From an uncultured Bacteroidales bacterium (lineage in GTDB: Bacteria > Bacteroidota > Bacteroidia > Bacteroidales > Paludibacteraceae): a stretch of 44,754 bases of DNA. The translations under genes and the position numbers were made by a program. Positions 8,053 to 25,428 of this stretch are shown here, one piece after another. The stretch covers positions 1-44,754 of the forward strand of contig CALAUY010000049.1 in NCBI GenBank assembly GCA_937892015.1, given 5' to 3'. Positions within the stretch are counted from its first letter, which is position 1, and each line of letters opens with the position of its first letter. Below the pieces are notes generated by a model. That model was given only the letters and a program-made list of their open reading frames with translations, was not told the DNA's origin and made no database searches.

Positions 8053-8925
8053 TTACTCAACAATGATGGGCTTGTACTTTGGAACAAGTGCCTTCATGAT
8101 ACACCAACCAATCAGGTAGGCAACGGCACAGATGCAGAACACGACCATGTAGGCGGCTGGCTTTCCCTCGAAACCGAAGAAGGTGAAAGCAGAGCCCTGA
8201 CCAGCAGCCCAGTCGAAGAATTTACCGCTACCGAGGTTGATACTCATAGAGCCCAGTCCACCAGCCATCGTTCCTAAACCGACGATGGTACCAATGGTAG
8301 ACTTGGGGAACATGTCACCGATGGTGGAGAACAGGTTTGCCGACCAAGCCTGATGACCTGCGCCGAGCAGACCGATCAGGATAGCGGGCCACCATGCGCT
8401 GTAGGCTCCCAGAGGCTGTGCGAAAAGTCCAAGCACGGGGAAACAAGCGAAGATGAACATGGCACGCATACGACCCAGATAGGGGTTCATGCCTTTCTTG
8501 TCTACGAAATAGGTGGGCAGATAACCACCACCGATGGAGAGGATGGTCACAATGGCATAGAGGGTGAAGATCAACGCGATACCCATGGTGGAGTCTGAGG
8601 TGTAGCCATACTGGTCTGAGAAGTAGGCTGGAGCCCAGAACAGGAAGAACCACCATACACCATCCGTCATGAACTTACCAACGAGGAACGACCATGTCTG
8701 TTTGTAGGTGAAGCACTGCAAGAACGGGATGGTCTTCTCTTCCTTCACATTCTCACGATCCTGAGCCTCTGCGATATCATTGTCTTGCTCGATATAGTTC
8801 AGCTCTGCCTGATTGACACGCTTGTTCTGTGCGGGCTTCTCATAGAGCCACATCCACAGTCCCATCCAAATGAAACCGAGGGCACCGATGATGATGAATG
8901 CCATCTCCCAACCCCCGGCACGTGC
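8053..8925 (-). pseudogene. MFS transporter (hexuronate/ExuT-like), 5'-truncated; only about the C-terminal 6-TM half remains
   Basis: Family-like sequence starts near ...GGWEMAFIIIGALGFIWMGLWMWLYEKPAQ, the central-loop region of ExuT-type MFS proteins, and runs to the stop at 8053. The ~60 codons upstream in the ORF (to 9111) are antisense read-through of the susD fragment. Confidence 0.7.
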
Positions 8926-8931
8926 CAACAG

Positions 8932-10026
8932 ATTATTTCGATGGTGGACGACGTGCTCAACGACCCCGAATGGGAGGAGCCTCTCTACCACTACGATGGC
9001 GGCAAGTCCGAACAGAACTGCCCGTGGGGACCGTATGCACCAATCATCAACTCGTGGGAGAGCCGTGCCAACCGACTCGCATCGTCTATCCCCACCACCT
9101 TCTTCGCACACGCCATCATGAGTTGCTATGATATAAAGAACTCAGACCGTAAGTCGGCACTGGACCCCCGCGGCGACATGCTGATGACACCACGCTCGAT
9201 GGGTACTACCGCCAACTCCGATGTGCTGCGTTACCTTGAGAGCAACATCGGTATGGACAACTCGATGAAAGTGACGTATTATCCCGACCTCTATGCCACG
9301 GATGCTATGTCGAATCCTTACACGCAAAACAATGGTTATATCGCGCTGATTACCACCGAAGAACTGATGTTCATCAAGGCCGAGGCTCAATACTGGGCAG
9401 GCGACAAAGCAGCAGCCTACAACACCACCGTTGAGGCGACAAAGAAGAACATGGAGCGTTATGGTATCTACGAGTCGGCACTGGCCACTGCCGCCAAGAG
9501 ACGCTACGACCGTTTCTTCGAGGTGAAGTTGCCGGGCGCAGTTGATTTCACCATCGGCGATCTGATGCAACAGAAATACGTGGCGATGTACCTGCAACCC
9601 GAGCAGTGGACAGACATGCGTCGCTACAACTATAGCTCCAAAACCAACGGCATCCAGTACGACAACTGCTTCGTCTATACAGTGTACACCGTCCACAACG
9701 GCTCTTCTAAGAAATGGGATGCTTCCAGCTTCTCCGGCGAATACTCGCTACGCCGTCCGTACAACCTCTACGAACCCTATTGGTGCACTTCGGACGACTA
9801 TGGCATCAATGCTGAGTTGTCGCCCAATGCGTGGATCAACCGCCTTAATGCCGACACCGAGACTGAGACCAAGTATAACAAGGGCGAACTGGACCGCATC
9901 GGCTATTACACGACCAATGCGGCAGGGGAGAAAGTGTTGGACTACCGCGTACTCAAGCGCCGACTAATCTGGGCACACAACACGAGCGGAAAGGCCGTTT
10001 GCAACGACCCCACACCGTGGATGTAA
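8932..10026 (+). pseudogene. RagB/SusD family outer-membrane nutrient-binding protein, 5'-truncated (no signal peptide or lipobox, no upstream susC)
   Basis: SusD-like C-terminal blocks: ...DPRGDMLM..., YIALITTEELMFIKAEAQYWAGDKAAAYNTTVEATKKNMERYG and YVAMYLQPEQWTDMRRYNYS. About 365 aa remain of an expected 500-600. Confidence 0.75.
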
Positions 10027-10097: not shown

Positions 10098-10955
10098 ATG
10101 AAACTAAGAACAAAAATACTGATGCTTGCGGCGATGACCTTGACCGCAGCGTCTTGTGCGAAGCACGATTTCTTCGACGAAACGACCATCACCGGCAACG
10201 TTGGTCCCGAGGCGTACTGGGAGATAGGTAGTGCCGCCGTCAGTGCCGGTGGTGAGATGGAGTTCACCGTGCAGTACTACTCATCGGTGAGCGAGCTCGA
10301 CCACTCTGAAGTGTGGTACGACATCGAGGAGACGATTGACCAGACCGTCACCTGTCCGTGGACCAGCACCTTCAGCTATTCGCTGTCGAGCAACGTGAAA
10401 GCGCAGAAACGTGTGTCGCAGAAAATCAAGGAGTATCCCCATCTGGCGGAATATTGGAGCGACTCGCTTCATGCTTTCACCTTCACCGGCACGTTCCCCG
10501 TCAGCGGCACACTCGCCCGCTTCTCGTGGAGTCACCCCGAGGAGTTCGACTCCACGAAAATGGTCACGTATTTTGGCGAGGGCTATATGGAGACCTTCAA
10601 AGAAGCGGTGCATACCCGCATGCAGTACGCCGACTACCGTAAGATGTACATCGGTATGGGACTGATGGACGACTTCACACAATATACCGACTCCACCGAG
10701 GACAAGAACCAAGGCGAGGGTATCTATGTGTACCATTTCAAGCAGGATGCCGACGGCAACACCCTCCCGTGGGTGACCGACTCGATGGAACTGTATTGGA
10801 ACAAAGTGACGTTTGAGATGCTGGTGGAGAACTCTGCCAACGGCTATTACGACGTGGATTACAACCGCTCGTATTCGCTCAACGCCCTGATGAAAGTCTA
10901 TGATGTGCGCGGCGTCTATTCCGCTACGCAATCCAAAGAAATTGCAATCAACTAA
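10098..10955 (+). CDS. lipoprotein of unknown function in the SusE/F position (candidate surface glycan-binding protein)
   Basis: 285 aa with ATG start and lipoprotein signal MKLRTKILMLAAMTLTAAS-C. Lies immediately downstream of the susD fragment. I recognise no domain. Confidence 0.6.
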   Translation: MKLRTKILMLAAMTLTAASCAKHDFFDETTITGNVGPEAYWEIGSAAVSAGGEMEFTVQYYSSVSELDHSEVWYDIEETIDQTVTCPWTSTFSYSLSSNVKAQKRVSQKIKEYPHLAEYWSDSLHAFTFTGTFPVSGTLARFSWSHPEEFDSTKMVTYFGEGYMETFKEAVHTRMQYADYRKMYIGMGLMDDFTQYTDSTEDKNQGEGIYVYHFKQDADGNTLPWVTDSMELYWNKVTFEMLVENSANGYYDVDYNRSYSLNALMKVYDVRGVYSATQSKEIAIN

Positions 10956-10971: not shown

Positions 10972-12672
10972 ATGAAACGCAATATCTTCAATCATCTCAT
11001 GTTGGCATTACTGCCGCTCCTGGCGGTCAGTTGTTACGACAACGTCCCCAAAGTGGAGGAACTGCCGCAAGATGCCGTATCGTTTGAGTACAGCGTACTG
11101 GGAGACTACGCGCTCGACTACTACGTGGGTTCGGTCATCAAGTTTGTCAACACCTCGCCCGCAACCACAGAGGGTACACCCGCTTGGGATTTCGGTGACG
11201 GTGCATCCGCGACAGGTGACGAGGTGGAGCATTTCTTCGAGGAGGCCGGCACGTACACCGTCAAACTGACCATCGGCAATTACAGCAAGAGCCAGGTCAT
11301 CATGATATCTGACATCAAGCCACTGCTTACCATCAACCCCATTGAGGGCGGTATCTGCGAGGTGAACACCTCCAAAGTGTCCTTCTCGCTCGAAGTGCCT
11401 AACCCGCAAAACTACTCGCTGGAGTATCTCTGGACACTCCCCGCAGGCACGAAAAATGCTAATGGAGAAATTATCACCACCTGCACCGACCGCTTGCCCG
11501 GTGACCTCACGTTCACTAATGTCGGCTCACAGACAGTCAAACTGCAAGTGAAGATGAACGGGCGTACACTCGAAGAGGGCTCGGCGAATGTACAAGTGGG
11601 CTTCAACCAAGACGTCCCCACGCTCTATTACGCCGTGCAGGGCGGACATATCATGGCATACAAACTGGTGCCTGATGCCGACCGGCCTGCTGACATGGAA
11701 ATAGCGCCATACGACCTCGGACTCTCGTCAGGTCAGCATCCCTTCAACCTACTCTTCAAAGACTCGTCGCTCTTCGTGCTCGATTGTGGCAAACAGTTCT
11801 ACTATGTCAACGACGAGGACGGCGTGCTTGGCGATGGTAAGATTTCCGTCATTAGCAAGGACGGTAGCAAAGTGGAGACGATGATCTCCAACGCCGGACA
11901 GGCCGCTTTCGACGACCCGTTCTACGGATACATCGAGGACGATATCCTCTATTATGCCAACCGCAACACGGGCATCATCCCCGTGCCTATCAATACGCGC
12001 AACGCGCTTTATAGCAGCGCCGAATTTCCCTATCATGTGCAGCACAACTATCTGGGCTACTACAACAACGGTTGGGGATACGGCTCTATCGGCGGATGTC
12101 TGGGTAAGATTGACGGCGTTTGGCATTGGTGTAAGTTCTACAACGGCACCGGCATCTTCCGTTTCACCGACTCCGACATCCTCTCGTCCTCCATCGCGCA
12201 AGGCGATGCCAACAACGTGCCGGCTGCAGGTATAGCGCTCGGCGGTATGTGCCCCAAATCCTTCGCGTACGACAAGAAACTCGGAAAGTTCTATTTCACC
12301 CTCTGGGACGAGGGCTACGCGGGTTTCTACGCTTGCACAATGGACGAGCTGAACGCAATCGGAACGAGCAAATCAAACCTTGCACCCTACAAGATTCTGA
12401 GCGATACAGGACTGGGGTTCGAGGCGAATATCTCCGGTTCACCCGCTTCAGTGGAAGGCACTTCTTCCGAGCCCGTAGCTATCTGTCAGATGGCACTGGA
12501 TGAGAACACAGGTTGCGTCTATTTCGGGTATCGTAACACGAAGAACGACCCCACGAATGCGCCTACAGGCCTCTATCGCTACAACCCCGAAACGAACAAT
12601 ATACAGACTGTGCTGGAAGGTGCGCCCATCTATGGTGTGGTGGTCAACCCAACGAAAGCGAAACTATTCTGA
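10972..12672 (+). CDS. PKD-domain lipoprotein with a beta-propeller-like C-terminal region
   Basis: The ATG at 10972 gives MKRNIFNHLMLALLPLLAVS-C (lipobox); the track start at 10900 overlaps the previous gene. PKD block FVNTSPATTEGTPAWDFGDGASATGDEVEHFFEEAGTYTVKLTIGN. The stop overlaps the next start (ATGA at 12670-12674). Confidence 0.65.
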   Translation: MKRNIFNHLMLALLPLLAVSCYDNVPKVEELPQDAVSFEYSVLGDYALDYYVGSVIKFVNTSPATTEGTPAWDFGDGASATGDEVEHFFEEAGTYTVKLTIGNYSKSQVIMISDIKPLLTINPIEGGICEVNTSKVSFSLEVPNPQNYSLEYLWTLPAGTKNANGEIITTCTDRLPGDLTFTNVGSQTVKLQVKMNGRTLEEGSANVQVGFNQDVPTLYYAVQGGHIMAYKLVPDADRPADMEIAPYDLGLSSGQHPFNLLFKDSSLFVLDCGKQFYYVNDEDGVLGDGKISVISKDGSKVETMISNAGQAAFDDPFYGYIEDDILYYANRNTGIIPVPINTRNALYSSAEFPYHVQHNYLGYYNNGWGYGSIGGCLGKIDGVWHWCKFYNGTGIFRFTDSDILSSSIAQGDANNVPAAGIALGGMCPKSFAYDKKLGKFYFTLWDEGYAGFYACTMDELNAIGTSKSNLAPYKILSDTGLGFEANISGSPASVEGTSSEPVAICQMALDENTGCVYFGYRNTKNDPTNAPTGLYRYNPETNNIQTVLEGAPIYGVVVNPTKAKLF

Positions 12673-15167
12673 TGAAGCGAACGCTACATATAGCTCTTGC
12701 TCTGAGCCTCTGCTCCCTGCTTCTTGCCCCTTGTTCACTCAAGGCGCAACCCAAGCGCGAGTTCCGCGCTTCGTGGCTCACTACCGTTTGGGCAATCGAC
12801 TGGCCTACATCGTGGGGAAATGCGAACAAAGCGCAGCAACAGCAAGACGAACTCAAAGCACTCGTCGATTCGCTCGAAGCAGCGAACATGAACGCCGTCT
12901 TCTTCCAAGTACGCGGCTTCTGTGACGCAATGTACAACTCTCAATACGAGCCGTGGAGTACCTACCTGACGGGAACGCGTGGTGGACAACCCTCGTACGA
13001 TCCGCTGGCAGTGCTCGTGGAGTATGCCCACAGTAAGGGCATCGAGGTGCATGCGTGGATGAACCCCTACCGGTACAGCACATCCTCCGCAACTCACGGA
13101 ACACTCGCAACCGACTACGCCAACACCCATCCCGATTGGCTCGTCAACTGCGGCGGAATCTACATCCTCAACCCCTGCATGCCCGAAGTGAAAGAGCGGA
13201 TTGCAGCAGTGGTGGCCGATGTGGTAGAGCACTACGATGTGGACGGCATCATCTTCGATGACTATTTCTATCAGTCGGGTTACTTGAACACGTACGACGA
13301 CAGCTATTATCAGGCCAGTGGCACTACCCTCAGTCGCGCTGATTGGCGGCGAGCGCAAGTGAACGAGATGGTGAGGATGGTGCGCGATACGATTCGCTCC
13401 ATCAAACCGTACGTCCATTTCGGCATTGGCCCGGCGGGCGTTGCCGGCAAGTCGAACACCTCCGCGCCCGTCTATGGCGTCGAACCGTGTCCGGTCGGTT
13501 CCGACTGGCAGTACAACGGCATCTATTCTGACCCGCTGGCGTGGTACAACGAGCAGACCATCGACTACATGGCACCACAACTGTACTGGACCATCGGTTC
13601 AAGCAACGACTACGACGTGCTCTCCAATTGGTGGAGCAAGATGGCATCGGTCTTCGGGCGACATATGTACCCGTCACAGGACCTCAGCGGCGGTAAGGGC
13701 TCGAGCACTTCGATGGCCGAAGAGATTGGTAAACAGATGATTCTCGACCGCGACCACGACCTCTTGGGCGCACCCGGCAGTTGTTGGTACTCGCTCAACA
13801 CGGGCATGAAAACGGCGGGATTCTTCCGTTATATCCGCAACAACGTCAATCCCCACTTGGCAGTCGTGCCACAGATGTGGTGGCTCAAACAAGATACAAC
13901 CCTGTTCGTCAATAACTTACGTTATCAGAGTATGGGCAACGGCAAGATGTACCTCACATGGGATGCACCGATGGACAATCTGCGATATGTGGTATATAAC
14001 GTACCGCAAGACACAGTGGGCAAGATTGGCGCATTTGCCGGTGGCGATTTCATCCGTTCTATCACGTATGGCACTAACTATGCCATCGATATGACCGGCG
14101 ATGTGGGACGTTTTGGCGTGAGTGTACTCGACCGTTTTGGCAACGAGTACCCCGTCCGTACTTATGGCAACACTGCGATTGGCAACGCAACCCCGGCAAC
14201 CCTCACTTTCCCCGCTGATGGGACTTCACCGCTCTTGCCAACGTGGTTCGCGTGGAACAAAGTGGCCGGTGCCGATTCGTATTTTGTGCAGTTCTCTCGC
14301 ACGGCCGACTTCTCTTCGCTCGACTACGAGACAGAGACGGTCGATACCTGTTTCTTCACCGCCAACGTGCTTTGGCTGACTGAAGGTGCCACCTACTATT
14401 GGCGCGTCGTAACACGTTCGCCCAACTGCCGCGATGCATATTCCGAGACACGCTCTTTCGGATGCTCCTACTTCAAGATGGTCTATCCCGCCGACGAGGA
14501 ACGCGACTGCTCACAGACGCTCACTGCCGTTTGCGACAGTGTCCCTGACCCGTCTGCCGTCTATACGTTCGAGTTCTCAAGGACTGTTTCGTTCGGTGCC
14601 AGTGATATCCTCTACAACGTCTCTGCCGGCCAACCCAGAGCTTCCGTCCCGGAAAACATACTGCTCGCATCTTCTTATTACTACGTGCGCGCAACGGTAG
14701 AGTATTCGGGCGTATCGGCCACCACCGACGTACACCGTTTCCGCACCGCCGCGCAAGTGGTACCCGTACCGACAGTTATCAGCCCTGCTGAGGGCGATAC
14801 CATCATCGGTAGCGAGGTGGAGATTTGTTGGCAAGAACAGGCCTCTTCCGGTTTCCGTGTGGAACTCTCTACTTCCGTCACTTTCGCCGGACGACAAACC
14901 AAGGCGGCTGTCAAGGACCCGACAACGTTCTGCCACACCTTTTCGGATGTTGACCCCGGCACCTACCACGTCCGCGTCAAAGCGGTGGCCGACGGAGTCT
15001 ATACCAATCCAAGTCCCGTCGTCTCCTTCATTATCGAAGCACCAGAGTCCGCACTCACGAACTCCCAAGAAGAGACAACCGCCTGCAAAATACTCGAAAA
15101 CGGACAGGTCATCATCATCCGCGACGGCAAACGCTACACAGTTATGGGAACAATAATAGATAAATAA
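12672..15167 (+). CDS. secreted glycosyl hydrolase-like family 10 (GHL10, YngK-type) protein with three tandem beta-sandwich modules and a shared C-terminal tag
   Basis: 831 aa. Signal peptide ending LKA-QP. GHL10 N-terminal signature REFRASWLTTVWAIDWP...NMNAVFFQVRGFCDAMYNSQYEPWS...YDPL...AHSKGIEVHAWMNPY. Three ~90-aa repeats each end in YYWRV, YYVRA or YHVRV. Tail KILENGQVIIIRDGKRYTVMGTIIDK. Confidence 0.8.
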   Translation: MKRTLHIALALSLCSLLLAPCSLKAQPKREFRASWLTTVWAIDWPTSWGNANKAQQQQDELKALVDSLEAANMNAVFFQVRGFCDAMYNSQYEPWSTYLTGTRGGQPSYDPLAVLVEYAHSKGIEVHAWMNPYRYSTSSATHGTLATDYANTHPDWLVNCGGIYILNPCMPEVKERIAAVVADVVEHYDVDGIIFDDYFYQSGYLNTYDDSYYQASGTTLSRADWRRAQVNEMVRMVRDTIRSIKPYVHFGIGPAGVAGKSNTSAPVYGVEPCPVGSDWQYNGIYSDPLAWYNEQTIDYMAPQLYWTIGSSNDYDVLSNWWSKMASVFGRHMYPSQDLSGGKGSSTSMAEEIGKQMILDRDHDLLGAPGSCWYSLNTGMKTAGFFRYIRNNVNPHLAVVPQMWWLKQDTTLFVNNLRYQSMGNGKMYLTWDAPMDNLRYVVYNVPQDTVGKIGAFAGGDFIRSITYGTNYAIDMTGDVGRFGVSVLDRFGNEYPVRTYGNTAIGNATPATLTFPADGTSPLLPTWFAWNKVAGADSYFVQFSRTADFSSLDYETETVDTCFFTANVLWLTEGATYYWRVVTRSPNCRDAYSETRSFGCSYFKMVYPADEERDCSQTLTAVCDSVPDPSAVYTFEFSRTVSFGASDILYNVSAGQPRASVPENILLASSYYYVRATVEYSGVSATTDVHRFRTAAQVVPVPTVISPAEGDTIIGSEVEICWQEQASSGFRVELSTSVTFAGRQTKAAVKDPTTFCHTFSDVDPGTYHVRVKAVADGVYTNPSPVVSFIIEAPESALTNSQEETTACKILENGQVIIIRDGKRYTVMGTIIDK

Positions 15168-15209
15168 CTAGATAAATAACATGACAACGGCAACAAGAGA
15201 CAATATTCT

Positions 15210-15311
15210 ATGAGAGAAGCAATTAGAGATAAGGAACGTCTGCTGCATATACAATCAGCAATCATGCAGTTGGTTGGAACATGCTTACACCACCCTGTGA
15301 TTGTCCTGTGA
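15210..15311 (+). pseudogene. remnant of a DUF86/HepT-type toxin gene (N-terminal ~28 codons only)
   Basis: ATG at 15210 gives MREAIRDKERLLHIQSAIMQLVGTCLHH..., which resembles the conserved N-terminus of HepT/DUF86 proteins (M.e.irDkeRL.HI..ai..i). The frame then runs into the 11-bp tandem repeat and stops. The start overlaps a preceding mini-ORF stop as ATGA, as in MNT-HepT pairs. Confidence 0.35.
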
Positions 15312-15358
15312 TTGTCCTGTGATTGTCCTGTGATTGTCCTGTGATTGTCCTGTGATTA
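15295..15358. repeat. 11-bp tandem repeat CCTGTGATTGT, about 5.8 copies
   Basis: Read directly: five perfect copies at 15295-15349 plus the partial CCTGTGATT. Lies about 125 bp upstream of the ATG at 15482. Confidence 0.95.
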
Positions 15359-15481
15359 ATAGACATTCAAAAGACTACAAAACAACAAACAAAATAATTT
15401 ACTTAACGCAACCGAGTCATGAGGGACGTGTTCCCACAAGGGGAGGAAGCAAAATTTATTAACTAAAAACAAACACAATTT

Positions 15482-18400
15482 ATGAAAAGACTCTCTCTTT
15501 TCGCTGCTGTCCTTTTTGCAGCAGTAATGTCGTTCGCACAAGCGCCGGCAATCATGTTCTCCGAGGCTGCCTCGACCGGAGCATTGACTGACAGCACTTT
15601 CACGGCGACAAATTTAACTCTTCGGACTGTTGACACCGGTAACAAGATGTCTATCGATGCCAACAATGCCTCTTTCGGCGAGAGTGCAGACGCTCGTGTG
15701 CCATTCTCTTATCGCCTGAAAGCCGGAGCTAAAACGACCATGTCGGATTCAGAACCTACCACCAACTACTTGAAGCTCAATGCAGCTGTTGCCGGTCAGT
15801 TGGTGATTGCTGTTCGTCCTTCCAGCAGCGGTGCTGAGGACAGAAACCTCATCGTTGCACAGAATGGCGTTGAGCTCTACAATCAAGTTATTCTTGAGTC
15901 AGCCTTGAAGCATACCGAAGATGGAGTTACCTACTTCAACTTCGTTAAGGTAAATGTTGAGGCCGGTGAAATTATCCTCACCTATCCCGTTGGAGCCCTC
16001 AATTTCTACTACTTCGGCTTGATGACAAACTCTGCGGCCTTTGTAGAAAAACTTTGGTCAGGAGAACCTCTCGGTTGGACTGCCGCTGACTCCCGTCAAT
16101 GGACCGGTTTCGGCGAGTATGTCTATTGGGAGAGCAAAGCAGAGCATACTATCTATGGAACACATGATGGTGTGACTGTTGACACACTCTTTACCAATGA
16201 CGCTATTGATGGTACGGCTTTCTGTGTGGATGGTGCCGGTAACTTCGTAGTTGAGGGTGTTTTCCCCTCTGTTGCGTCTCACGTTTTCTTGGTTAAACAC
16301 GACCTCTCTGCATCGGTTGATATCCCCGTTACCGGTCTCGCTCGTACGGACATCGTAACTGCTACCGGTGATGTGTTCTCTGCTGAGGGCGGTTATGTAT
16401 TCCTTTATGGTAACTCGGCGAACCTGCTTATTTTAGCTATCAAGAATGCCGGTGCTGCTGACCAAGAGGTTGTAACCAAGACGGTTGCTGTTGCCGGTAG
16501 TAATGTGCAGAACTTTGTGGTTGCCGGAGATACGCTTGTTCAGTATGTGCAGCGTCGTTCGCAAGGACAAACAGGTTTTGATAAGTTAGAGAACGGCGTT
16601 AACACCGGCTCTATTGCCGGCATGCGCGGTTACAAGCACACCACTCTTGGTGGAGCAATGCTTACGTTGGCAGGCAACGAATTTGCAATCTATCCTGCAG
16701 GTGCAAACAACTATTCTTCTGAATTCTCTGTTGCCAACCTGACAGAAGGTTCTTTGGCTGCTAGTAAAGCAGATGCGTTGCAGACTCTCTTCTGCGCAAA
16801 CACAACCACCCGCGCGAACTCCACTAACGTTGGTGTATTCCTTAATGCTTCGAAGATTGACGACAACACCGCTTACATTCAAGTGGGCAATGGCTCTGAT
16901 GGTACTGCCCTGTTCAAACTCTCAGTTGAACCCGCTGTATTGTCGGCTTGCTATCTGAAGCAGGGCAATGAAGGCGCTACTTGGGAAGCTACCGGCACAG
17001 CCCAAGGCACACATTATGTACGTGAAGGCATCTTCATGGCCGACTCACTCTTCATCAACACTACTGCTTCTGACGAGGGGGCTGTCATGTTCACCCGCGA
17101 TAATATCGCCTTCACCGGCAACGTGGCTGTGAACGATACCGTTCGTTTCGTTTACAACGCCGCTTCCGGCGTTATGGGCGTTGAACTGCTCGGCAAGTTT
17201 ATCCCGAAACTGACCTTCAACGTAAAAGTTCCTGAAGGCACGCCGAACTGCTACATTGCCGGTAACTTCAATGACTGGACCTTTACACGTATGACGCAAC
17301 TCACCGACAGCACTTACACCATCACTATTACAGGTGACGGCGTGGCCATCGTTGATAGCGTACAGTACAAGTACACTTGTGGTACTGACTGGGCTTATGT
17401 TGAGAAAGATGCCAACAACGAAGAGATTGGCAATCGCCATTGGGCAGAGAACGACGTTGTTGCACGCTGGTTCGATGTTCCGTCAGTTAACGCTGTTACT
17501 TACGAACTCAATGGTGGCGTCTTCAACGACTACGGCTGGACAGGCAAGGGTGCTGTACTCCTTGATCTCCAGAACGACTTCAATGCCGCTTATAACACTT
17601 CTATGAATTGGGTTAAGGTAGAGGATGGCGTTTACTATTACCATATTGGCAACACTACGGACGAGACACCTCAACCAATATGGAAGACCGAAGCTGAGGC
17701 TGTTGGAGAGGCTTGCACCGTTACGGGCTTTGTCCAGAACACCACTTACAATACCGAGAACCGCCTGAAGAACCTCATCTCCGTTACCAATGTGGATAAG
17801 TATGGTTGGTTGAAGGACGTGATTGTTAAGACACGTACCGCTGCCGGGTTGGCTGCTACTGACGACGACCTCTCAGAGAACATCTATCGTAAAGAGATTT
17901 CCGCTATCTTCTTACAGTCGCCTGCTGAGACCTCTTGGCCGGCAGCTCCGAGCTATGCCATTGCCGGTACTATAGAGGCAATGATGCCGGTTTGGAAACA
18001 CGGTTTCTGCAACCCCGACCACGTCAATGCCGAGTTCACGCTCAATGCACCGTATTATAGCGGATACACGTTCGATGGCTGGTATGCTGAGTCCGACTTC
18101 TCCGGAAGCAAAGTAACGTCTATCAACGACAGTACACCGGCTTGCACCCTCTATGCAAAGTGGGTTGAGTACATCCCGACGGTTGCTGAAGCTATCGCCG
18201 AGGCACAGAACGACACCGTTAAACTCGGTGCGGTGGTTACCTTCATCCGTGGCGCGAAGAACGTTTACGTTCAGGATGCTACCGGCGGCGTTCTACTCTA
18301 TACCGCTGCCAATGCAACGTGCAAAGTGGGCGATTTCGTAGTTGTTCGCGGTAAGAACACCACATACGGCGGCGCTCCTGAGATTGGTGGCGCAACCTTC

Positions 18401-19975
18401 CTCTCCAGCGAAGAAGGTCATGCTCTGCCCGCCGAGCTCACCACTACGCTCTCTGCACTCACTGCTGAACCGCTCAAGTACTTCGCGCAGCGCGTTTACG
18501 TTGAGGGACTTGTCCTGGCTTCTTACGATAACAATGGCAATGCCTTTGTTACCGATGGCGTGGACACTGTTCAGTGCTACTATGTAACGCCTGACCAGAC
18601 TGCTATCCCCGTTGGCTCGAAAGTGAATATCCACCTGATTGCCGCTTACTACAACAAGTTCCAATTCGTTGGTCCAAGCGATGGCATCGAACTGGCTCCT
18701 ACTGCCGGTGGCGACCCGTATCAGTATCCTGCTCTTGGCGAAAACGGCGTTTACACGCTCACCAACAAGTGGCTCTACAGCAATGTGATGGACAACTTCT
18801 CTGCTAATAAACCGGCAGCCGACGACTACGCTCGTGGCATGGTGGCCAAGGACGGTAAGATGTACTTCATCAACCGCACTATCGGTGGCTTCACGGTTGT
18901 TGACGGCGCTACGGGCGAGATGCTTGACCCGATTACTATCACCGGTGACCACCTCTTCCAGCAACAAGATACCGCCGGCGAATGGTCAGCTTGCGCTACG
19001 CTCGCATACAACGACGTGAAACTTGACAACGCCGGCCACTTCCTCATCGCAGGTTGTGTCACCGGTGGCAACCGCTTCCAAGTTTATACGGTTGACATCG
19101 CTACAGGTGTTGCTACCGAACTCATCAATGAGCGTCTCTACGACAACGAGGAATGGGGTGCTGAACTTGCTGAGGCTGCTACCAAGTGGCGTTTCGACGC
19201 ATTCAACGTTTACGGCGACGTAACAAGCAATGCTATCGTCATGGCTGCCGATGCCAACTCCTTCTACGCTTACAAGTGGACCATCGAGAACGGCGTTGCC
19301 GGTGCTGCCGAGCGTATCAACTGTACGCCGGAAACAACCGACGAATCGCTCCTCGTAAAGGACGGTGCACTCTCTGTTACCGCTTTCGGTACGGCTCCGC
19401 AGATCTTCCCCGTTGACTTCAACTACTTCTACGTTGACGGATTCAACCATCTGCCAATGCTGTTCGACATGGACGGTACGCTCATGGAAGACTTCGCTAC
19501 ATGCCCCACCGGCGTGGCTGTTCCGATGGCCGGCGACACCTGCACGATGAACTTCGGTCACAACGGACTCTGCGAGTTCCAGATTGGTGACGAGTACTTC
19601 CTCGTAATGGCCGCCACCAACACCGTTGGCTCACCGACATCTGCATTCGCTATCTATAAGTTCGCTGACGAGGCGAAATCGTTCGCCGATATGGAACCGC
19701 TCTACTTCTTCCCGAAAGCCGGTATGGGTTCTGCTACCAATGGTTGCCGTACCGCCGTTCCGTCTGTCGAAGTTAGTGGTACCAAGGCCACCATCTACAT
19801 CTACACCAACAACAATGGTTATGGTGTTTATGAGATGACCGGCAAAGAAGGCACCGGCATCAAGAACATCGATGGCGACAATGTAGAGGTAATGAAAGTG
19901 ATTGAGAACGGTCATGTTTACATCATCAAGAATGGTGTACGCTACACGGTTCTCGGCGCTCAAGTTAGCAAGTAA
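15482..19975 (+). CDS. 1497-aa secreted mosaic surface protein (CBM-like module, Listeria-Bacteroides repeat, OB-like module, propeller-like C-terminal region, shared C-terminal tag)
   Basis: Signal peptide MKRLSLFAAVLFAAVMSFA-QA. CBM20/48-like block YIAGNFNDWTFTRMTQL...YKYTCGTDWAYVE (~nt 17205-17480). Flg_new-type repeat YSGYTFDGWYAES (~18040-18170). OB-like block VKLGAVVTFIRGAKNVYVQDATGGVLLY...GDFVVVRGKNTTYGGAPEI (~18180-18400). Tail KVIENGHVYIIKNGVRYTVLGAQVSK. Confidence 0.6.
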   Translation: MKRLSLFAAVLFAAVMSFAQAPAIMFSEAASTGALTDSTFTATNLTLRTVDTGNKMSIDANNASFGESADARVPFSYRLKAGAKTTMSDSEPTTNYLKLNAAVAGQLVIAVRPSSSGAEDRNLIVAQNGVELYNQVILESALKHTEDGVTYFNFVKVNVEAGEIILTYPVGALNFYYFGLMTNSAAFVEKLWSGEPLGWTAADSRQWTGFGEYVYWESKAEHTIYGTHDGVTVDTLFTNDAIDGTAFCVDGAGNFVVEGVFPSVASHVFLVKHDLSASVDIPVTGLARTDIVTATGDVFSAEGGYVFLYGNSANLLILAIKNAGAADQEVVTKTVAVAGSNVQNFVVAGDTLVQYVQRRSQGQTGFDKLENGVNTGSIAGMRGYKHTTLGGAMLTLAGNEFAIYPAGANNYSSEFSVANLTEGSLAASKADALQTLFCANTTTRANSTNVGVFLNASKIDDNTAYIQVGNGSDGTALFKLSVEPAVLSACYLKQGNEGATWEATGTAQGTHYVREGIFMADSLFINTTASDEGAVMFTRDNIAFTGNVAVNDTVRFVYNAASGVMGVELLGKFIPKLTFNVKVPEGTPNCYIAGNFNDWTFTRMTQLTDSTYTITITGDGVAIVDSVQYKYTCGTDWAYVEKDANNEEIGNRHWAENDVVARWFDVPSVNAVTYELNGGVFNDYGWTGKGAVLLDLQNDFNAAYNTSMNWVKVEDGVYYYHIGNTTDETPQPIWKTEAEAVGEACTVTGFVQNTTYNTENRLKNLISVTNVDKYGWLKDVIVKTRTAAGLAATDDDLSENIYRKEISAIFLQSPAETSWPAAPSYAIAGTIEAMMPVWKHGFCNPDHVNAEFTLNAPYYSGYTFDGWYAESDFSGSKVTSINDSTPACTLYAKWVEYIPTVAEAIAEAQNDTVKLGAVVTFIRGAKNVYVQDATGGVLLYTAANATCKVGDFVVVRGKNTTYGGAPEIGGATFLSSEEGHALPAELTTTLSALTAEPLKYFAQRVYVEGLVLASYDNNGNAFVTDGVDTVQCYYVTPDQTAIPVGSKVNIHLIAAYYNKFQFVGPSDGIELAPTAGGDPYQYPALGENGVYTLTNKWLYSNVMDNFSANKPAADDYARGMVAKDGKMYFINRTIGGFTVVDGATGEMLDPITITGDHLFQQQDTAGEWSACATLAYNDVKLDNAGHFLIAGCVTGGNRFQVYTVDIATGVATELINERLYDNEEWGAELAEAATKWRFDAFNVYGDVTSNAIVMAADANSFYAYKWTIENGVAGAAERINCTPETTDESLLVKDGALSVTAFGTAPQIFPVDFNYFYVDGFNHLPMLFDMDGTLMEDFATCPTGVAVPMAGDTCTMNFGHNGLCEFQIGDEYFLVMAATNTVGSPTSAFAIYKFADEAKSFADMEPLYFFPKAGMGSATNGCRTAVPSVEVSGTKATIYIYTNNNGYGVYEMTGKEGTGIKNIDGDNVEVMKVIENGHVYIIKNGVRYTVLGAQVSK

Positions 19976-20011
19976 ATACTGCCCATGCTGTTTAAACAGT
20001 AACCTGATAAT

Positions 20012-20039
20012 GAGGGCGGCGCAATACCGCGCCGCCCTC
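20012..20039 (+). terminator. GC-rich hairpin terminator after the 1497-aa gene
   Basis: GAGGGCGGCGC-aatacc-GCGCCGCCCTC, an 11-bp perfect stem, followed by a weak T-rich tract (TGTCTTAATCTTTT). Confidence 0.65.
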
Positions 20040-20058
20040 TGTCTTAATCTTTTCTCCG

Positions 20059-22359
20059 ATGAAAAAACGCATACTCCTACTCTCGATTCTTATCTGTACA
20101 ACGGCGTTGAGCCAAGCTATCACACTCAACAACGTTGAGTACACCATCGACACGCTTGCCCGTTTCTCGCCGGGCCCGGGTGCCATGTACTACCAACTAC
20201 AGATGCTGCGAGCAACTGACCGCGGTGGACGACTCAATTGTTGGCTCATGACTGTCGATACCAAGAACCCGTACGTCTCTATCGAAGCTGTAATGGGGCG
20301 CGATGCCGTCATCGGAACAGAACGACCGTCGGCCATGGCGGTCAGAAAAAGCACCTCCACGAAAATATTCTATGGAGGCACCAACGGCGATTTCTTCGCC
20401 ACCACCGGTGATGTGGGACGCCCGACCGGCCTCAGCATCGTCAACAACGAATTTGTCTATACACCCACCTCTTCCGCCCGTCGGTTTGGCGGCGTAGATG
20501 AAGCGATGCGTGCTGTGGTGGGCACAACAATGAAATATACCGGCAAACTGCTGTTGCCGGATACAACCCTTACCATCAAACATGTCAACTATACGCGAGC
20601 CGCTGACGAGCTCGTACTCTATAACCAACACAACGGCACTACTACGCAAACCAATGCGTACGGCACCGAACTACTCATCGAACTGCTGCCGGGATATGCT
20701 TGGCATACCACCGCAACCCTCAAAGCGCGCGTCGTCACTAAGCAAGTCGGTGTAGGCTCAATGGCCATCCCTGCCGGCAAGGCCGTCCTCTCCGGACACG
20801 GCACCATGCAGACGATGCTCAACACCCTCAACGAGGGCGATACTGTTACCGTCAAGTTCACGCTCAAGATTGACGGCACGAACACCAACGTGTCGCAGTG
20901 TATAGGCGGCGACAACTATGCACTGATTGTGGATAGTGGCAGGGTAGAACAGTCTAATTTCTGGAACGAACTGCATCCCCGCACCGCTTTCGGCAGCAAC
21001 GAAACGGGTGACACCCTACTCTTCCTCGTTGTGGATGGGCGCGGCGTCAGTACCGGCTGCACAACGAAAGTGCTGGGCGAGATTATGCACTACTACGGCG
21101 CATGGAAAGCCGTCAACTGGGACGGTGGCGGCTCATCGTGCCTCTATATCCGGCCTTTCGGCGAAGTAAACCACGGCTCTGACGGCACCGAGCGTGCGGT
21201 CGGTAATGCGATGTTCGCCGTGGCGAACATACCGGAAGACGACAACGTGATTGCCTCCATCGCACCCTATCAACCCGACTACGCCCTGCCACGTTACGGC
21301 ATGGCAGCACCCGACTTCGTCGGATACAACCGTTTCGGCGTACTCATCGACACGCACGTCGAGGGCGTCACCCTCTCTTGTGACGAGACGCTTGGCCACA
21401 TACTCAACGATGGCCGCTTCTTCGCCGACGGCACACAAAACGGGCTCTTACATGCAGTACTCAACGACTCCGTCGCATGCGACATACCCGTCCGACTCAA
21501 TACCTCCTCGCCCATCACTATCCGTCTCGACTCGCTCCTCATCGACTCCCGACACCCCTATTCCATTGAGGTGAGCGGCATCGTGGGTAACGCCTCCATA
21601 GAGGTGTACCCGGGCGCTCTCACGTGGCACTCGCTCAACGACCAAGTGGCCACCGTAAGCGATGAGGGCATCATCCTCGGTGTGAGCAACGGCAGTACAC
21701 AAGTCATCGGACGGCTCGGAGATTACACCGACACCATCCTCGTCAACGTAGAGATACCTTCCCATGTGCCAATGCAGTGGGAGGACTTCCTCGCATTCGA
21801 CGAATGGAAAATAACGTCCACCACGGGTTTCAACCCCACGTGGGTCGTCAGCAACTGCCTCGGTTGCCCGTCAGGACTTGCGTTCACGTACGTCATTGGC
21901 CGTTCACCGTTCCTGAAAATAGAGAACAAAGAGCGTATGTACTCGCTGCCGGACTCTATTCGTTGGGCGTTTCAAACCGATGCGCAACTGACCAAAGTGA
22001 ATATGGGCATCCGCACCGACAAGGCCGAACAAGCCACTACCATCACGCTCTTCCCGGAAGGCGTACCCTCTAACACGCAGAACCAAGTGTGCATCCCCGT
22101 TCGCGAGACGTTCGGTGACGACCCTGCCATCTTCCCGCTCTGGTTGGAGTACATCAATTTCCTTGTGGACACCAAAACCACCACCGGCACCCACAACATC
22201 ACGCTTTGGCCGATTGAACTCATCTACAACGAATACGTCGAGTCGGCACTTCCCTGCACTTCAGCTGAACCTACTGCCCGCAAAATACTCGATAACGGTC
22301 AACTCCTCATCATCCACAACAACACCCGCTATACCCTCCTCGGCACAGCAATACATTAA
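20059..22359 (+). CDS. secreted phosphodiester glycosidase family protein (NAGPA/DUF2233 domain) with a Big_2 domain and the shared C-terminal tag
   Basis: Signal peptide MKKRILLLSILICTTALS-QA. NAGPA-type blocks GGTNGDFF and RTAFGSNETGDTLLFLVVDGRGVSTG...AVNWDGGGSS. Big_2-like block LTWHSLNDQVATVSDEGIILGVSNGSTQVIG. Tail KILDNGQLLIIHNNTRYTLLGTAIH. Confidence 0.8.
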   Translation: MKKRILLLSILICTTALSQAITLNNVEYTIDTLARFSPGPGAMYYQLQMLRATDRGGRLNCWLMTVDTKNPYVSIEAVMGRDAVIGTERPSAMAVRKSTSTKIFYGGTNGDFFATTGDVGRPTGLSIVNNEFVYTPTSSARRFGGVDEAMRAVVGTTMKYTGKLLLPDTTLTIKHVNYTRAADELVLYNQHNGTTTQTNAYGTELLIELLPGYAWHTTATLKARVVTKQVGVGSMAIPAGKAVLSGHGTMQTMLNTLNEGDTVTVKFTLKIDGTNTNVSQCIGGDNYALIVDSGRVEQSNFWNELHPRTAFGSNETGDTLLFLVVDGRGVSTGCTTKVLGEIMHYYGAWKAVNWDGGGSSCLYIRPFGEVNHGSDGTERAVGNAMFAVANIPEDDNVIASIAPYQPDYALPRYGMAAPDFVGYNRFGVLIDTHVEGVTLSCDETLGHILNDGRFFADGTQNGLLHAVLNDSVACDIPVRLNTSSPITIRLDSLLIDSRHPYSIEVSGIVGNASIEVYPGALTWHSLNDQVATVSDEGIILGVSNGSTQVIGRLGDYTDTILVNVEIPSHVPMQWEDFLAFDEWKITSTTGFNPTWVVSNCLGCPSGLAFTYVIGRSPFLKIENKERMYSLPDSIRWAFQTDAQLTKVNMGIRTDKAEQATTITLFPEGVPSNTQNQVCIPVRETFGDDPAIFPLWLEYINFLVDTKTTTGTHNITLWPIELIYNEYVESALPCTSAEPTARKILDNGQLLIIHNNTRYTLLGTAIH

Positions 22360-22401
22360 CATCGCCATCTCGAAATAACGAAATAACGAACCCTAATAAT
22401 A

Positions 22402-25400
22402 ATGAAAAAATCTCTTTTCCTTACCGCCCTGCTCGCGGTTGCGTTTGCCCTCAACGCTCAGAGCATTCGCGTCCTCAGTACCCAAACGATAGGTTACGGC
22501 AATATGCCGCATATCTCTGCCGATGGTCTCCGCGTGAGTTGTCTGCCTTCCGGTGAAGCTTGGTCGGAGGTTATCGCCGACATCTACGTCACCAACGAGA
22601 ACTGCCAACTGATTCTCCATCAGAACGGTCTCTGCCGGCAACTCACGCCCGACGGTGCCGATGCGCACTACATCTGGTCGTCGGTGTCCCCTGACGGTAC
22701 GAAGATTCTGTACAACACGCAGCACGGCACCTCTGTCTGCAACCTACAAGGGCAGAAAGTGGCGTATCTCGGACATATCAACGCGCCTGTCTGGTACGGC
22801 AACGATTATGTGGTAGGGCACCTCGACCTCGCAGAGGATATCGAGACCATCTCCTCCGTCATCCTCATGGCAAAAGCTGACGGCACCGCAGTGCAACAAC
22901 TCACCACCAACAGCGAGATTGCGATGTACCCGTCTGCTTCTCCGGCCACTGGACGTATCGTCTATAACAACCTCGCCGGCGATGTGCGCATGTTGCAACT
23001 CAACCTCGCAGAGAACGTCATCCCACAACAACTGCCTCAAGTGGTGACGGCCGAACGCAAAGCGCTGAAAGCACCCATTCAGAAAGCACGTAAGAACACG
23101 TTTGCCGACATCAAGATATACATCAACCCGGGGCACGGCGGTCACGGCTCTAACGACCGAGGCCTGACCATCTATCCTTTTGCTTCCGGTGACCCCGAAG
23201 GGTTCTGGGAAAGCAATTCCAACCTCGACAAGGGACTCATGCTCGACTCGATGCTTACGTCACTCGGCGTGCAGACGATGATGTCGCGCCGCACCAACAA
23301 CGATGGTGGCGGCAATGATGTCGATGTGCTCCAAGCTTGGCTCAACGCGGGTAAGATAACGCAAGAGCAGCACGACTACATGCTCGCCAACGGCGATGAT
23401 CGCGCGCTCTCTGCCATCGCTGCCGAGGCCAACGCATACGATGCCGACTTCATGATCTCTATCCACTCCAACGCCGGCACTCCCGCCAACTACATCTTGC
23501 AGCTCTATTCCGGAAAAGAGCTCTCTGATACGCGCTATTACGCCCACACCAACCGCAACGAGGCCGAGTCACGCGCCGTAGTGAACGTTTTCGCGCCATA
23601 CCTCTACGAGAACGCCAACTCTGATTGGACTCGTCAACCCATGATCGAGGGCGACAAGACGTTCGCTTACCGCATCTTCGGGTGGAGCAACGGTTACGGC
23701 GTTCTGCGCAACCTACAGGTGGGCGGCACCATCTCCGAGGGTTCGATGCACGACTATACCCCCGAAACCTACCGACTCATGAATATGGGCTACAAACGTG
23801 CCGAGGCGTTCCATTTCATGCAGTCGTTCCTCGAATACTACCTCGAATACACGTATCCTAAGGGCGCTATCGGCGGGCAAGTGCGCGATGCCTATCAAGG
23901 CATGACCTTCCCCGCCATCTATTTCCACCCGGGCTCAACCGACGGACTCATGCCGCTCAACCGTGCCAAAGTGGAACTGCTGCAGAACGATGTTGTTATT
24001 GCCACCACCTACACCGACACCCTCTACAACGGCTGTTACTATTTCTGGGATGTCGATACCGGCACTTACACCGTTCGCGCCTCAATGGACAATTACTACG
24101 CCAAGGAGAGCCAAGTGCACGTGACAGCCGGACATATCACGTATTGGAAAGCATTGCTCAACCTGCAACGCCAAACGCCTCCCGAAGTGATTGCTTACAC
24201 GCCGCATCCGGCCACTATCACCGACTCGGTAGAGGTCTCCACCGGCATAGAACTGACGTTCAACTGGGATATGAACGTCGATTCCACGATGGCCGCGTTC
24301 TCCATCTCTCCAGCTGTTGACGGCACTATCAGTTTCCACAACGCCAACCGCATCTTACGCTTCACGCCCTCCGGACGACTGACGCCAAACACCGAGTTCA
24401 CCGTCACACTCTCCACCCAAGCTTGTCATCCCGACACCGCTTGGCCAAACCATCTGGTGCAACCGTTCGTGTTCACTTTCCGCACAAAAGGACGCGGCTC
24501 GATCGTCTTCCTTGATTCTTACCCGCAAGATGGCGCCACCGACGTGCCGCTCAACCCGTCATTCATCACCCTCTTCGACCAAAAACTCAACACCTCCACC
24601 GTCCGTAAGGCGTTCTCCGTTGCCGACATGAACGGCACGACCGTGGGCATCAACACCCGTTCCATCAGTTGCAACGCCGCGCCAGAACCCTATGGGTACG
24701 CCGCGTTCGAACTGACCGGTGAACTGCGACCGAACACGCAGTATCAGATGACCATTGCCGGTTCGCTCAAAGATAATATCGGCATCACGCTCGATGTGCC
24801 CGTCACCGTCACCTTCACCACCGGTTCGGATGAGACGCCCGACCTGCCTGTGGTGGATGTGCTCGACACCCTTCAGTTCGTCTATGACCGCGACCTTTCC
24901 TTCGCTGTCATCAGCGGTTCTACACTCCGCAACACCAACAAGAAATACTGGGGCGTTGCATCCAACGAACTCCGCTACAATTTCTTCGATGGCGATGGTT
25001 GCGAGGCAGTCTATACGATGAAAAACAAGACATTGGTAGAGGCATGTAGTGATGACCGAGTCGGACTCTACGTTTTCGGCGATTTCTCGCAGAACGAGCT
25101 GTATGCGAAATTCGAGACCGATGGCGACATTCACTATATCAAAGTGTGCGACCTCGACTACGGTGGCTGGAAATGGCAAGAGTTAGACCTCTCGACACTG
25201 CCCCTCGGAGTCAAACTGCAACTGACGGCTCTGCGTATCAACCGCGGCAGTAGTATTCTCTCCGCCTCAGGAGCCATCTACCTCAACAACCTCTCTTTCC
25301 TCGCCGCACCATCGGCCATCAACCACATCTCCGACGACACCTCTTTCCGCAAGGAAGTGATTGACGGACAAATCTATATCTACAAGAACGGCAAACGTTA

Positions 25401-25428
25401 CTCCGTCCTCGGCCAAATGCTAAAATAA
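22402..25428 (+). CDS. secreted multidomain N-acetylmuramoyl-L-alanine amidase (PD40/TolB-like propeller + Amidase_3 + CarboxypepD_reg-like + 2 SbsA-type Ig domains + shared C-terminal tag)
   Basis: Signal peptide MKKSLFLTALLAVAFALNA-QS. PD40-like block SVSPDGTKILYN. Amidase_3 blocks IYINPGHGGHGSNDRG and ADFMISIHSNAG. Ig-like blocks PPEVIAYTPHPATITDSVEVSTGIELTF and LDSYPQDGATDVPLNPSFITLF. Tail KEVIDGQIYIYKNGKRYSVLGQMLK. Confidence 0.8.
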   Translation: MKKSLFLTALLAVAFALNAQSIRVLSTQTIGYGNMPHISADGLRVSCLPSGEAWSEVIADIYVTNENCQLILHQNGLCRQLTPDGADAHYIWSSVSPDGTKILYNTQHGTSVCNLQGQKVAYLGHINAPVWYGNDYVVGHLDLAEDIETISSVILMAKADGTAVQQLTTNSEIAMYPSASPATGRIVYNNLAGDVRMLQLNLAENVIPQQLPQVVTAERKALKAPIQKARKNTFADIKIYINPGHGGHGSNDRGLTIYPFASGDPEGFWESNSNLDKGLMLDSMLTSLGVQTMMSRRTNNDGGGNDVDVLQAWLNAGKITQEQHDYMLANGDDRALSAIAAEANAYDADFMISIHSNAGTPANYILQLYSGKELSDTRYYAHTNRNEAESRAVVNVFAPYLYENANSDWTRQPMIEGDKTFAYRIFGWSNGYGVLRNLQVGGTISEGSMHDYTPETYRLMNMGYKRAEAFHFMQSFLEYYLEYTYPKGAIGGQVRDAYQGMTFPAIYFHPGSTDGLMPLNRAKVELLQNDVVIATTYTDTLYNGCYYFWDVDTGTYTVRASMDNYYAKESQVHVTAGHITYWKALLNLQRQTPPEVIAYTPHPATITDSVEVSTGIELTFNWDMNVDSTMAAFSISPAVDGTISFHNANRILRFTPSGRLTPNTEFTVTLSTQACHPDTAWPNHLVQPFVFTFRTKGRGSIVFLDSYPQDGATDVPLNPSFITLFDQKLNTSTVRKAFSVADMNGTTVGINTRSISCNAAPEPYGYAAFELTGELRPNTQYQMTIAGSLKDNIGITLDVPVTVTFTTGSDETPDLPVVDVLDTLQFVYDRDLSFAVISGSTLRNTNKKYWGVASNELRYNFFDGDGCEAVYTMKNKTLVEACSDDRVGLYVFGDFSQNELYAKFETDGDIHYIKVCDLDYGGWKWQELDLSTLPLGVKLQLTALRINRGSSILSASGAIYLNNLSFLAAPSAINHISDDTSFRKEVIDGQIYIYKNGKRYSVLGQMLK

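Follow-up and report, generated by a model that had tools for sequence, protein, structure and literature searches.

Four consecutive genes on the forward strand of an uncultured Paludibacteraceae-type bacterium encode large proteins that end in one shared C-terminal tag of ~38 residues. They lie on contig CALAUY010000049.1 of a metagenome-assembled genome (MAG), and the window analysed here is this whole 44.7-kb contig (44,754 nucleotides). The four open reading frames (ORFs) and their C-termini translate exactly as set out in a preliminary description of this DNA, and the likeness of the tails at the DNA level reported there is also present. A six-frame regular-expression scan of the window found the motif at those four C-termini only, 1-5 residues before the stop codon (Table 1). 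As detailed below, the tag is a real and strongly constrained module, strictly confined to C-termini, and the very large family to which it belongs is unannotated.

Table 1. Tail-protein genes, their tags and neighbouring genes in the window; a slash marks a cleavage site, putative within the tags (HMM, hidden Markov model).
Feature	Position	Strand	Tail HMM (bits)	Remarks
Cargo 1: GHL10 glycosyl-hydrolase-like enzyme with FN3/Ig-like domains, 831 aa	12672..15167	+		Signal peptide aa 1-25, cut A/Q; tail at C-terminus
Cargo 1 tag, aa 794-831	15051..15164	+		Putative cut ES/AL; linker, then beta-meander core
Cargo 1 tag core	15087-15164		60.8	KILENGQVIIIRDGKRYTVMGTIIDK
Cargo 2: Listeria-Bacteroides repeat (Flg_new) protein, 1497 aa	15482..19975	+		Signal peptide cut A/Q
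Cargo 2 tag, last 39 aa	19856..19972	+		Putative cut GT/GI
Cargo 2 tag core	19895-19972		49.1	KVIENGHVYIIKNGVRYTVLGAQVSK
Cargo 3: NAGPA phosphodiester glycosidase with Big-like domain, 766 aa	20059..22359	+		Signal peptide present
Cargo 3 tag, last 37 aa	22246..22356	+		Putative cut ES/AL
Cargo 3 tag core	22282-22356		52.4	KILDNGQLLIIHNNTRYTLLGTAIH
Cargo 4: Amidase_3 (N-acetylmuramoyl-L-alanine amidase) with CarboxypepD_reg and Big_5, 1008 aa	22402..25428	+		Signal peptide cut A/Q
Cargo 4 tag, last 37 aa	25315..25425	+		Putative cut PS/AI
Cargo 4 tag core	25351-25425		52.4	KEVIDGQIYIYKNGKRYSVLGQMLK
Lipoprotein	10134..10955	+		Lipobox AASC; no tag
PKD-domain lipoprotein	10972..12672	+		Lipobox AVSC; no tag; stop overlaps cargo 1 start
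SusD-like gene, 5'-truncated	8716..10026	+		Orthologue residues 170-603 (of 603)

Apart from the tag, the four proteins are unrelated, as had been proposed; Pfam assigns GHL10 and FN3 to the first, Flg_new to the second, NAGPA and Big to the third, and Amidase_3, Big_5 and CarboxypepD_reg to the fourth. Their signal peptides had all been said to end in A-Q, which is true of three of them, while the third protein reads ALS-QA. None of the four carries a valid lipobox, which places them outside the signal peptidase II (SPII) class of Bacteroidota surface lipoproteins; the two lipoproteins encoded upstream do have a lipobox and, in agreement with the preliminary description, lack the tail. A tail HMM, whose training set contained the four window tails, matched these at 49-61 bits (E 5e-17 to 2e-13), and a tblastn query with an orthologous tail from a different genome gave independent matches to the remaining three tails of the window, with E-values of 5e-7 to 6e-6. 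An exact sequence look-up for cargo 3 returned no record.

The shared region, first put at ~25 residues, reaches further upstream, to a [ST][AG][IVL] site that lies 38, 39, 37 and 37 residues from the respective C-termini. It comprises a disordered linker, which holds the site in the form [ST]/[AG][IVL], and a 26-residue predicted three-stranded beta-meander. Position statistics were taken from 313 distinct tails, numbered from the Gly (G0) of ENGQ. Conservation was highest at G0 (100%), K-5, I+4 and G+15 (99% each) and G+8 (97%), followed by Q+1 and Y+11 (94% each), [ND]+7 (93%), [RK]+6 (92%), N-1 (89%), E-2 (80%) and N+12 (79%); the C-terminus fell 18-20 residues past G0 in 308 of these tails. 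The consensus originally written for the window, beginning K-[IVE]-[ILV]-[ED]-[ND]-G, describes three of its tails and misses the fourth (KEVIDG). Positions -19 to -14 read P-T-A-[IVL]-[ED]-N, and 176 of 250 proteins (70%) carried [ST][AG][IVL] upstream of the core, ~10-fold above the 6.6% expectation derived from these proteins; in 129 cases it sat precisely at -18. With a putative cut behind the S/T, the freed piece would measure 36-38 residues in 158 of the 176 proteins and 37-39 residues in the window. In Muribaculaceae and Sodaliphilus copies the site reads TGI.

AlphaFold2 modelled the whole GHL10 cargo with a mean pLDDT of 88.5, a disordered linker at residues 794-801 and three short strands in the tail (805-809, 812-817 and 820-822), instead of the two strands initially predicted. 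The isolated module gave the same fold, with a core pLDDT of 82-90 and again a disordered linker. On direct reading the tail is an amphipathic beta-meander with no hydrophobic helix, and no NCBIfam model for sortase, exosortase or rhombosortase tags (LPXTG, PEP-CTERM, GlyGly-CTERM) matched it.

To determine how widely the tag occurs, an exhaustive search of 1.84 billion representatives was made with a 40-sequence tail profile; a word-indexed search with a 45-aa tail alignment had given 8 candidates, and the exhaustive search was used instead. It matched 10,249 proteins at E ≤ 0.001, of which 341 reached E ≤ 1e-10, the tag-bearing clusters being defined at 50% identity. In all of the best 150 of the 10,249, the match ended 0-2 residues from the C-terminus. 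Likewise, a hand-made degenerate DNA pattern for the tag core retrieved at least 119 stretches (8-kb tiles; loci carry L numbers below) from the GTDB species collection. Scanning the window and 119 loci with the tail HMM (12,923 six-frame stop-to-stop segments, 926 kb, cut-off 20 bits) yielded 171 matches, of which 170 stopped 0-7 residues before a stop codon and one was weak and internal. The motif is therefore C-terminal rather than internal, as first supposed. Two or more tail genes were present in 35 of the 120 sequences, the densest cluster being six tail ORFs within 8 kb of one Paludibacteraceae MAG (L062).

The lone internal match (L056, reverse strand, frame 2, aa 1105-1138 of a 1725-aa frame, 26 bits) could be two fused genes, by a lost stop or a frameshift, or a degenerate copy. 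Many divergent tails below the cut-off (12-19 bits) were seen in L052, L054, L058, L065, L066 and L082, e.g. KFLRDGTIYIRRSENTYSLVGTKVR and KRIENNLLYIALPNGTRYDAQGKRIE; the tail family extends beyond what the 10,249 significant clusters show.

Some DNA-level similarity between the window tails might be read as chance likeness or as a local artefact, i.e. recent duplication or gene conversion among four neighbours. We give this explanation virtually no credence: it is refuted by the 10,249 clusters, by the 926-kb scan and by orthologous loci elsewhere, which keep the tag on the same four genes with diverged tail sequences.

Among the stretches listed, carriers were almost all Paludibacteraceae (including Ca. 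Gallipaludibacter) or unclassified Bacteroidales MAGs of rumen, hindgut and human gut, with a few Sodaliphilus/Muribaculaceae, one Prevotellaceae UBA1726 and several 'Bacteroidaceae' MAGs. Among C-terminal tags it seems to predominate in Paludibacteraceae and in related uncultured Bacteroidales of the rumen and hindgut. Where tail proteins were named in their sources, the name was 'hypothetical protein [Paludibacteraceae bacterium]'. Three loci of one binning project, titled 'Firmicutes bacterium CAG:95' (L010), 'bacterium' (L083) and 'Mycobacteriaceae bacterium' (L094), have tail genes of Bacteroidales type as well as GHL10 homologues, and appear to be wrongly labelled bins.

Within the best 150 matches, those of at least 150 aa with a Met start had a signal-peptide-like N-terminus in 84 of 101 cases and a lipobox in one. 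The domains of the 150 representatives were all of extracellular types, namely Big_2, FN3, Flg_new, CBM26/CBM20/X25, F5/8-type-C, BspA-type leucine-rich repeats (LRR_5), beta-helix and hyaluronate-lyase N-terminal domains, and the type A C-terminal domain (CTD) model was absent from their 25 commonest Pfam families. Orthologues of the GHL10 cargo were tailed down to ~52% identity, none of them with a precomputed PF18962 assignment.

An autonomous, highly conserved mini-fold that is frequent on carbohydrate-active enzymes (CAZymes) and on proteins with carbohydrate-binding modules, in fibre-degrading gut bacteria, is also what one would expect of a functional module that is retained on the protein and is no sorting signal, be it dockerin-like, a docking element acting by beta-strand complementation or a ligand-binding mini-domain. 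Amidase_3 enzymes, moreover, can be periplasmic. Such a role is nevertheless quite improbable, given that the distance to the free C-terminus is strictly fixed, that the module is never repeated or internal, and that a processing-type motif is conserved within the disordered linker. It would also leave unexplained how starch-binding, LRR and adhesin proteins cross the outer membrane, and no candidate partner gene is enriched nearby.

We then compared the tag with known type IX secretion system (T9SS) CTDs. The expectation that standard CTD models would fail on the tag held: PF18962, TIGR04183, TIGR04131, NF033708 and other sorting models of Pfam-A and NCBIfam 20.0 gave no match to the four cargo proteins, scanned whole (E ≤ 1) and as their last 120 residues (E ≤ 10). 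As regards type B (TIGR04131) and type C (NF033708) CTDs, both an HMM match and a partner gene were lacking; the 119 loci contained no recurrent partner gene beside tail genes, which rules out a dedicated adjacent partner of the kind that PorP/SprF represents for type B CTDs. Judged by sequence, the tag falls outside the type A, B and C CTDs and the short CTD of Prevotella intermedia. The latter species has 48 'short' T9SS CTDs of 43-55 aa, which form one three-stranded sheet, contain motifs B, D and E and follow a cleavage consensus PT/GI with a conserved hydrophobic residue at +2, cleavage and glycosylation having been established by mass spectrometry (Ye et al. 2025, PMC11969387). As a control, we used a fragment of the validated short-CTD cargo P0285, found via the published peptides (...LEILFNGDFVT/GINGINNNDTEVKTVYDLQGRRLPAEAATKKGVYIINGKKVVVK). 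P. intermedia long CTDs matched TIGR04183 at 26-29 bits, and the validated short CTD matched neither PF18962, TIGR04183 nor any other model at E ≤ 10. A negative HMM result thus cannot tell a new system apart from a short signal of the T9SS, because the validated short CTD is equally missed.

Some homologues end differently. Four GHL10 homologues (L007, L010, L043 and L045), 40-43% identical to the window enzyme and with E 2e-70 and 3e-179 in the two cases tested, can be aligned with it no further than residue 791. Behind the same P(T)TAL site they carry a ~65-aa domain, WYVSEGxIV...LPYxxYNLLGxP...LPAxxGVxxxQVGQxKKxIVL, with a B/D/E-like order of motifs; TIGR04183 and PF18962 fail to certify it, and one copy weakly matches PF19910 (DUF6383, E 0.04). 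The canonical-looking CTDs in L007, L043 and L079 were uncertified by either model. L045 holds mini-tail genes and a long-domain GHL10 homologue together. In a sheep-colon 'Bacteroidaceae' MAG (L039), a mini-tail gene adjoins a GH43-like gene (L039:93-1190 and L039:2516-4771) whose C-terminus, IYSVSGIRR...GVNIV...KVISE, corresponds on motif inspection to P. intermedia short CTDs of the GxN subtype, and two tag types appear to coexist in this locus. In another family, paralogues stop at ...KDIQIKQY and tailed members run ~45 residues longer from there; the tag is modular, because untailed paralogues end where the linker starts.

Collectively, the tag is CTD-like in position, in its pairing with signal peptides, in a linker with a PorU-type motif, in its three-stranded fold, in its cargo and in its interchangeability with a CTD-like domain. 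The shared tail is probably a minimal C-terminal sorting domain, and we favour an ultra-short new class of type IX secretion signal. This assignment draws on the exclusively C-terminal position at a fixed distance from the C-terminus, on carriers with signal peptides and almost no lipoboxes, and on a predicted three-stranded sheet behind a disordered linker, as in the validated short CTDs. It is further supported because the linker motif matches the P. intermedia cleavage consensus PT/GI, the cargo domains of tail carriers are classes listed for P. intermedia T9SS cargo, the tail swaps with a B/D/E-like domain after the same PTAL site in GHL10 homologues, and a mini-tail gene adjoins a short-CTD-like gene in L039. 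In addition, complete T9SS sets are documented in Muribaculaceae, one of the carrier families, and rumen Bacteroidales export CAZymes by T9SS. The preliminary description had left the choice between a minimal or divergent T9SS CTD and an undescribed tag; its notion of a sorting-type C-terminal module is supported in part, and short CTDs as such had already been described (PMC11969387).

Several results weigh against a T9SS signal. The enlarged tail HMM scored the validated short CTD at 4.0 bits, and 54 of 2000 shuffles did as well; HHalign probabilities among the tail, the ~65-aa long domain and the P. intermedia long CTDs stayed below 4%; a PDB profile search with the tail and a Foldseek search with the isolated tail returned nothing. 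Pairwise methods are useless for this relation, because BLASTP failed to align even two motif-matched short CTDs in register. The sole recurring local resemblance is that of the tail-terminal YNxxGxx[VI] to canonical motif B (YDLQGRRL, YNLLGVPV, YSVDGKLVK), and with a motif-B-like element at the very end of the tail, the order B-D-E is broken. In Porphyromonas gingivalis, the last strands with motifs D and E, as well as the full sandwich, have been reported to be required. Genes of the T9SS machinery were not found in the window, and none was confirmed in ~880 kb of related DNA, whose 8-kb tiles are tiny samples of their genomes. Our literature search found no statement on T9SS in Paludibacteraceae. 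Paludibacter propionicigenes is reportedly T9SS-positive.

Most of these points would also be expected if the tag served a non-T9SS route, such as a dedicated outer-membrane receptor or exporter or targeting to outer-membrane vesicles, that mimics the logic of CTDs: homology to any CTD class is not detectable, the motif order is unlike that of type A and P. intermedia short CTDs, T9SS genes were not found in the sampled DNA, and these loci hold almost no certified canonical CTD (a single TIGR04183 match, below threshold at E 0.011, among 26 plausible secreted untailed C-termini). We consider such a route unlikely. No partner gene recurs beside the tail genes, the commonest neighbour being SusC-like (17 of 119 loci), the cleavage-type motif fits the P. 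intermedia PorU consensus, and homologues can have a CTD-like domain in place of the tag. To our knowledge, Bacteroidales have no other route that takes large folded Sec substrates across the outer membrane. More broadly, it is doubtful that the tag cargo bypasses known T9SS recognition, whether by a separate outer-membrane pathway or by a lineage-specific PorV/translocon; the latter could recognise a 26-residue meander that has a motif-B-like end and no D/E.

Candidates for T9SS components were assessed individually. The FGE-motif ORF in L036 considered as PorK is a generic FGE-domain protein, and a 1,761-aa ORF in L049 considered as Sov is a beta-helix adhesin. Two genes downstream of a tail gene, L050:3073-4491 encodes a 473-aa outer-membrane-barrel-like protein with an N-terminal GMGGA...NPAGL; a weak NF033709 (PorV/PorQ) match of one C-terminal fragment (E 0.29) may belong to it, and its identity as PorV/PorQ was not confirmed, with no PDB match. 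The unannotated 509-aa and 289-aa ORFs of the window likewise had no PDB match.

The surroundings of the four genes account for their proximity. Orthologous loci on long contigs read MurQ-like SIS, SusC, SusD, lipoprotein, PKD lipoprotein, GHL10, Flg_new, NAGPA and Amidase_3, and the four window cargo genes are the distal half of this conserved SusC/SusD locus. In these loci diverged tails occur on the same four genes, and the two lipoproteins are never tailed; the cargo 2 orthologues in L120 and L122 are also tailed. The preliminary description took the tag to define a co-localised cargo set, which its presence on > 10,000 protein clusters of many architectures contradicts; the cargo genes are neighbours because they are part of a conserved SusC/SusD-type locus and are not a tag-defined group. 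The locus is a conserved polysaccharide-utilisation locus (PUL) that probably targets a cell-wall-type glycan. Specifically, the MurQ-like etherase of the orthologous loci, together with amidase, NAGPA and GHL10 behind SusC/SusD, suggests utilisation of peptidoglycan or a teichoic-acid-like cell-wall glycan.

Alignment with orthologues placed the true lipoprotein starts at 10134 and 10972 and not at 10098 and 10900, where the first in-frame start codons lie. The truncated SusD-like gene is a remnant of the SusC/SusD head of the locus. Positions 8053-10026 hold two 5'-truncated genes arranged head-to-head, with a junction at ~8716-8770; the partner of the SusD remnant is the C-terminal half of an MFS transporter on the reverse strand. 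SusC and the MurQ-like gene are missing from the window, although the locus is otherwise conserved, and the junction is either a real deletion or rearrangement or a chimera of MAG assembly. In addition, the first ~250 residues of cargo 2 (15482-16225) have no counterpart in the L122 orthologue, the alignment beginning at orthologue residue 79 (window 16226), and a 315-bp gap precedes the cargo 2 gene; either this N-terminal stretch varies or the start has been wrongly assigned.

If the tag acts in type IX secretion, the following sequence of events is conceivable. The cargo would be exported by Sec and cut by signal peptidase I before the Gln, the signal peptides themselves being evident in the proteins. 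After periplasmic folding, a flexible linker of ~12 residues is predicted to present the 26-residue three-stranded meander, with the free C-terminus at a fixed 3-5 residues past the last invariant Gly. The T9SS translocon and the PorV shuttle may then recognise the meander, and a PorU-type sortase would cut at P-[ST]/[AG]-[IVL], as the conserved motif suggests, and release a peptide of 36-38 aa; the enzyme would subsequently be freed or linked to a surface glycan. The four window cargo proteins would thereby act as surface or extracellular enzymes of the SusC/SusD-type locus, their enzyme set pointing to a cell-wall glycan as substrate, and the two lipoproteins of the locus would reach the surface via the lipoprotein route.

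As a T9SS signal, the tag would represent the shortest class so far, with a 26-residue folded core and ~37 released residues, distinct in sequence from every modelled CTD. Given its apparent dominance and its presence on > 10,000 clusters, prediction with TIGR04183/PF18962 would then overlook the greater part of what these fibre-degrading lineages secrete. It would further narrow the minimal recognition needs of PorV and the translocon, and would reveal PULs whose surface enzymes bear this tag in place of lipid anchors. For engineering, the tag would serve as a compact signal for secretion and anchoring, and a family HMM could be built immediately from the existing tail alignments.

Of the known systems, the short CTD of P. 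intermedia is among the closest to the tag. Both sit at the very C-terminal end of proteins with signal peptides, are predicted to fold into one three-stranded sheet behind a coiled or disordered linker and are invisible to PF18962/TIGR04183; the motif PT/GI with its hydrophobic +2 residue is matched by [ST]/[AG][IVL], and the cargo classes overlap (LRR, FN3 and beta-helix). In contrast, the tag measures 36-39 aa from the putative cut, shorter than the 43-55 aa of the P. intermedia short CTDs and outside a class range of 40-55 aa. It lacks their motifs B (Y..G with a basic residue), D (GxY/GxN, then I) and E (K/R) in colinear order, and the tail HMM aligns the validated short CTD only as permuted fragments. 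The lineages differ, with the tag in Paludibacteraceae and allies and the short CTD in Prevotella; cleavage and glycosylation are experimentally established for the latter and putative for the window tag.

The type A CTD (TIGR04183/PF18962, Por_Secre_tail) likewise combines a Sec signal peptide with a C-terminal beta module, and in both cases the free C-terminus of the module matters. The type A CTD is a seven-stranded Ig-like sandwich of 70-100 aa, whereas the tag is a three-stranded meander of 26 aa. The last strand of the tag, YNxxGxx[VI], resembles type A motif B, but motifs D and E are absent after it. The distance from the putative cut to the tail Tyr, 28 residues, resembles the spacing of 19-30 residues from cleavage to motif B in long CTDs; the tag may descend from a type A CTD, namely its N-terminal half, or may have arisen independently. 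DUF6383 (PF19910) is the C-terminal domain of P. gingivalis PG2216 and a putative T9SS targeting domain, PG2216 being listed among predicted or identified T9SS substrates. The weak resemblance to DUF6383, below the Pfam threshold, belongs to the ~65-aa domain that GHL10 homologues have instead of the mini-tail, and the mini-tail itself has no DUF6383 match. Finally, the rumen bacterium 'Ca. Paraporphyromonas polyenzymogenes' exports CAZymes by T9SS from clusters that mix CTD enzymes with a lipoprotein enzyme (PMC5831590). It resembles the window in being an uncultured rumen Bacteroidales whose secreted enzymes are mixed with a lipoprotein in clusters; its cargo carries TIGR04183-detectable CTDs and lies outside PULs, whereas the window cargo carries the mini-tag and lies inside a SusC/SusD locus (PMC5831590).

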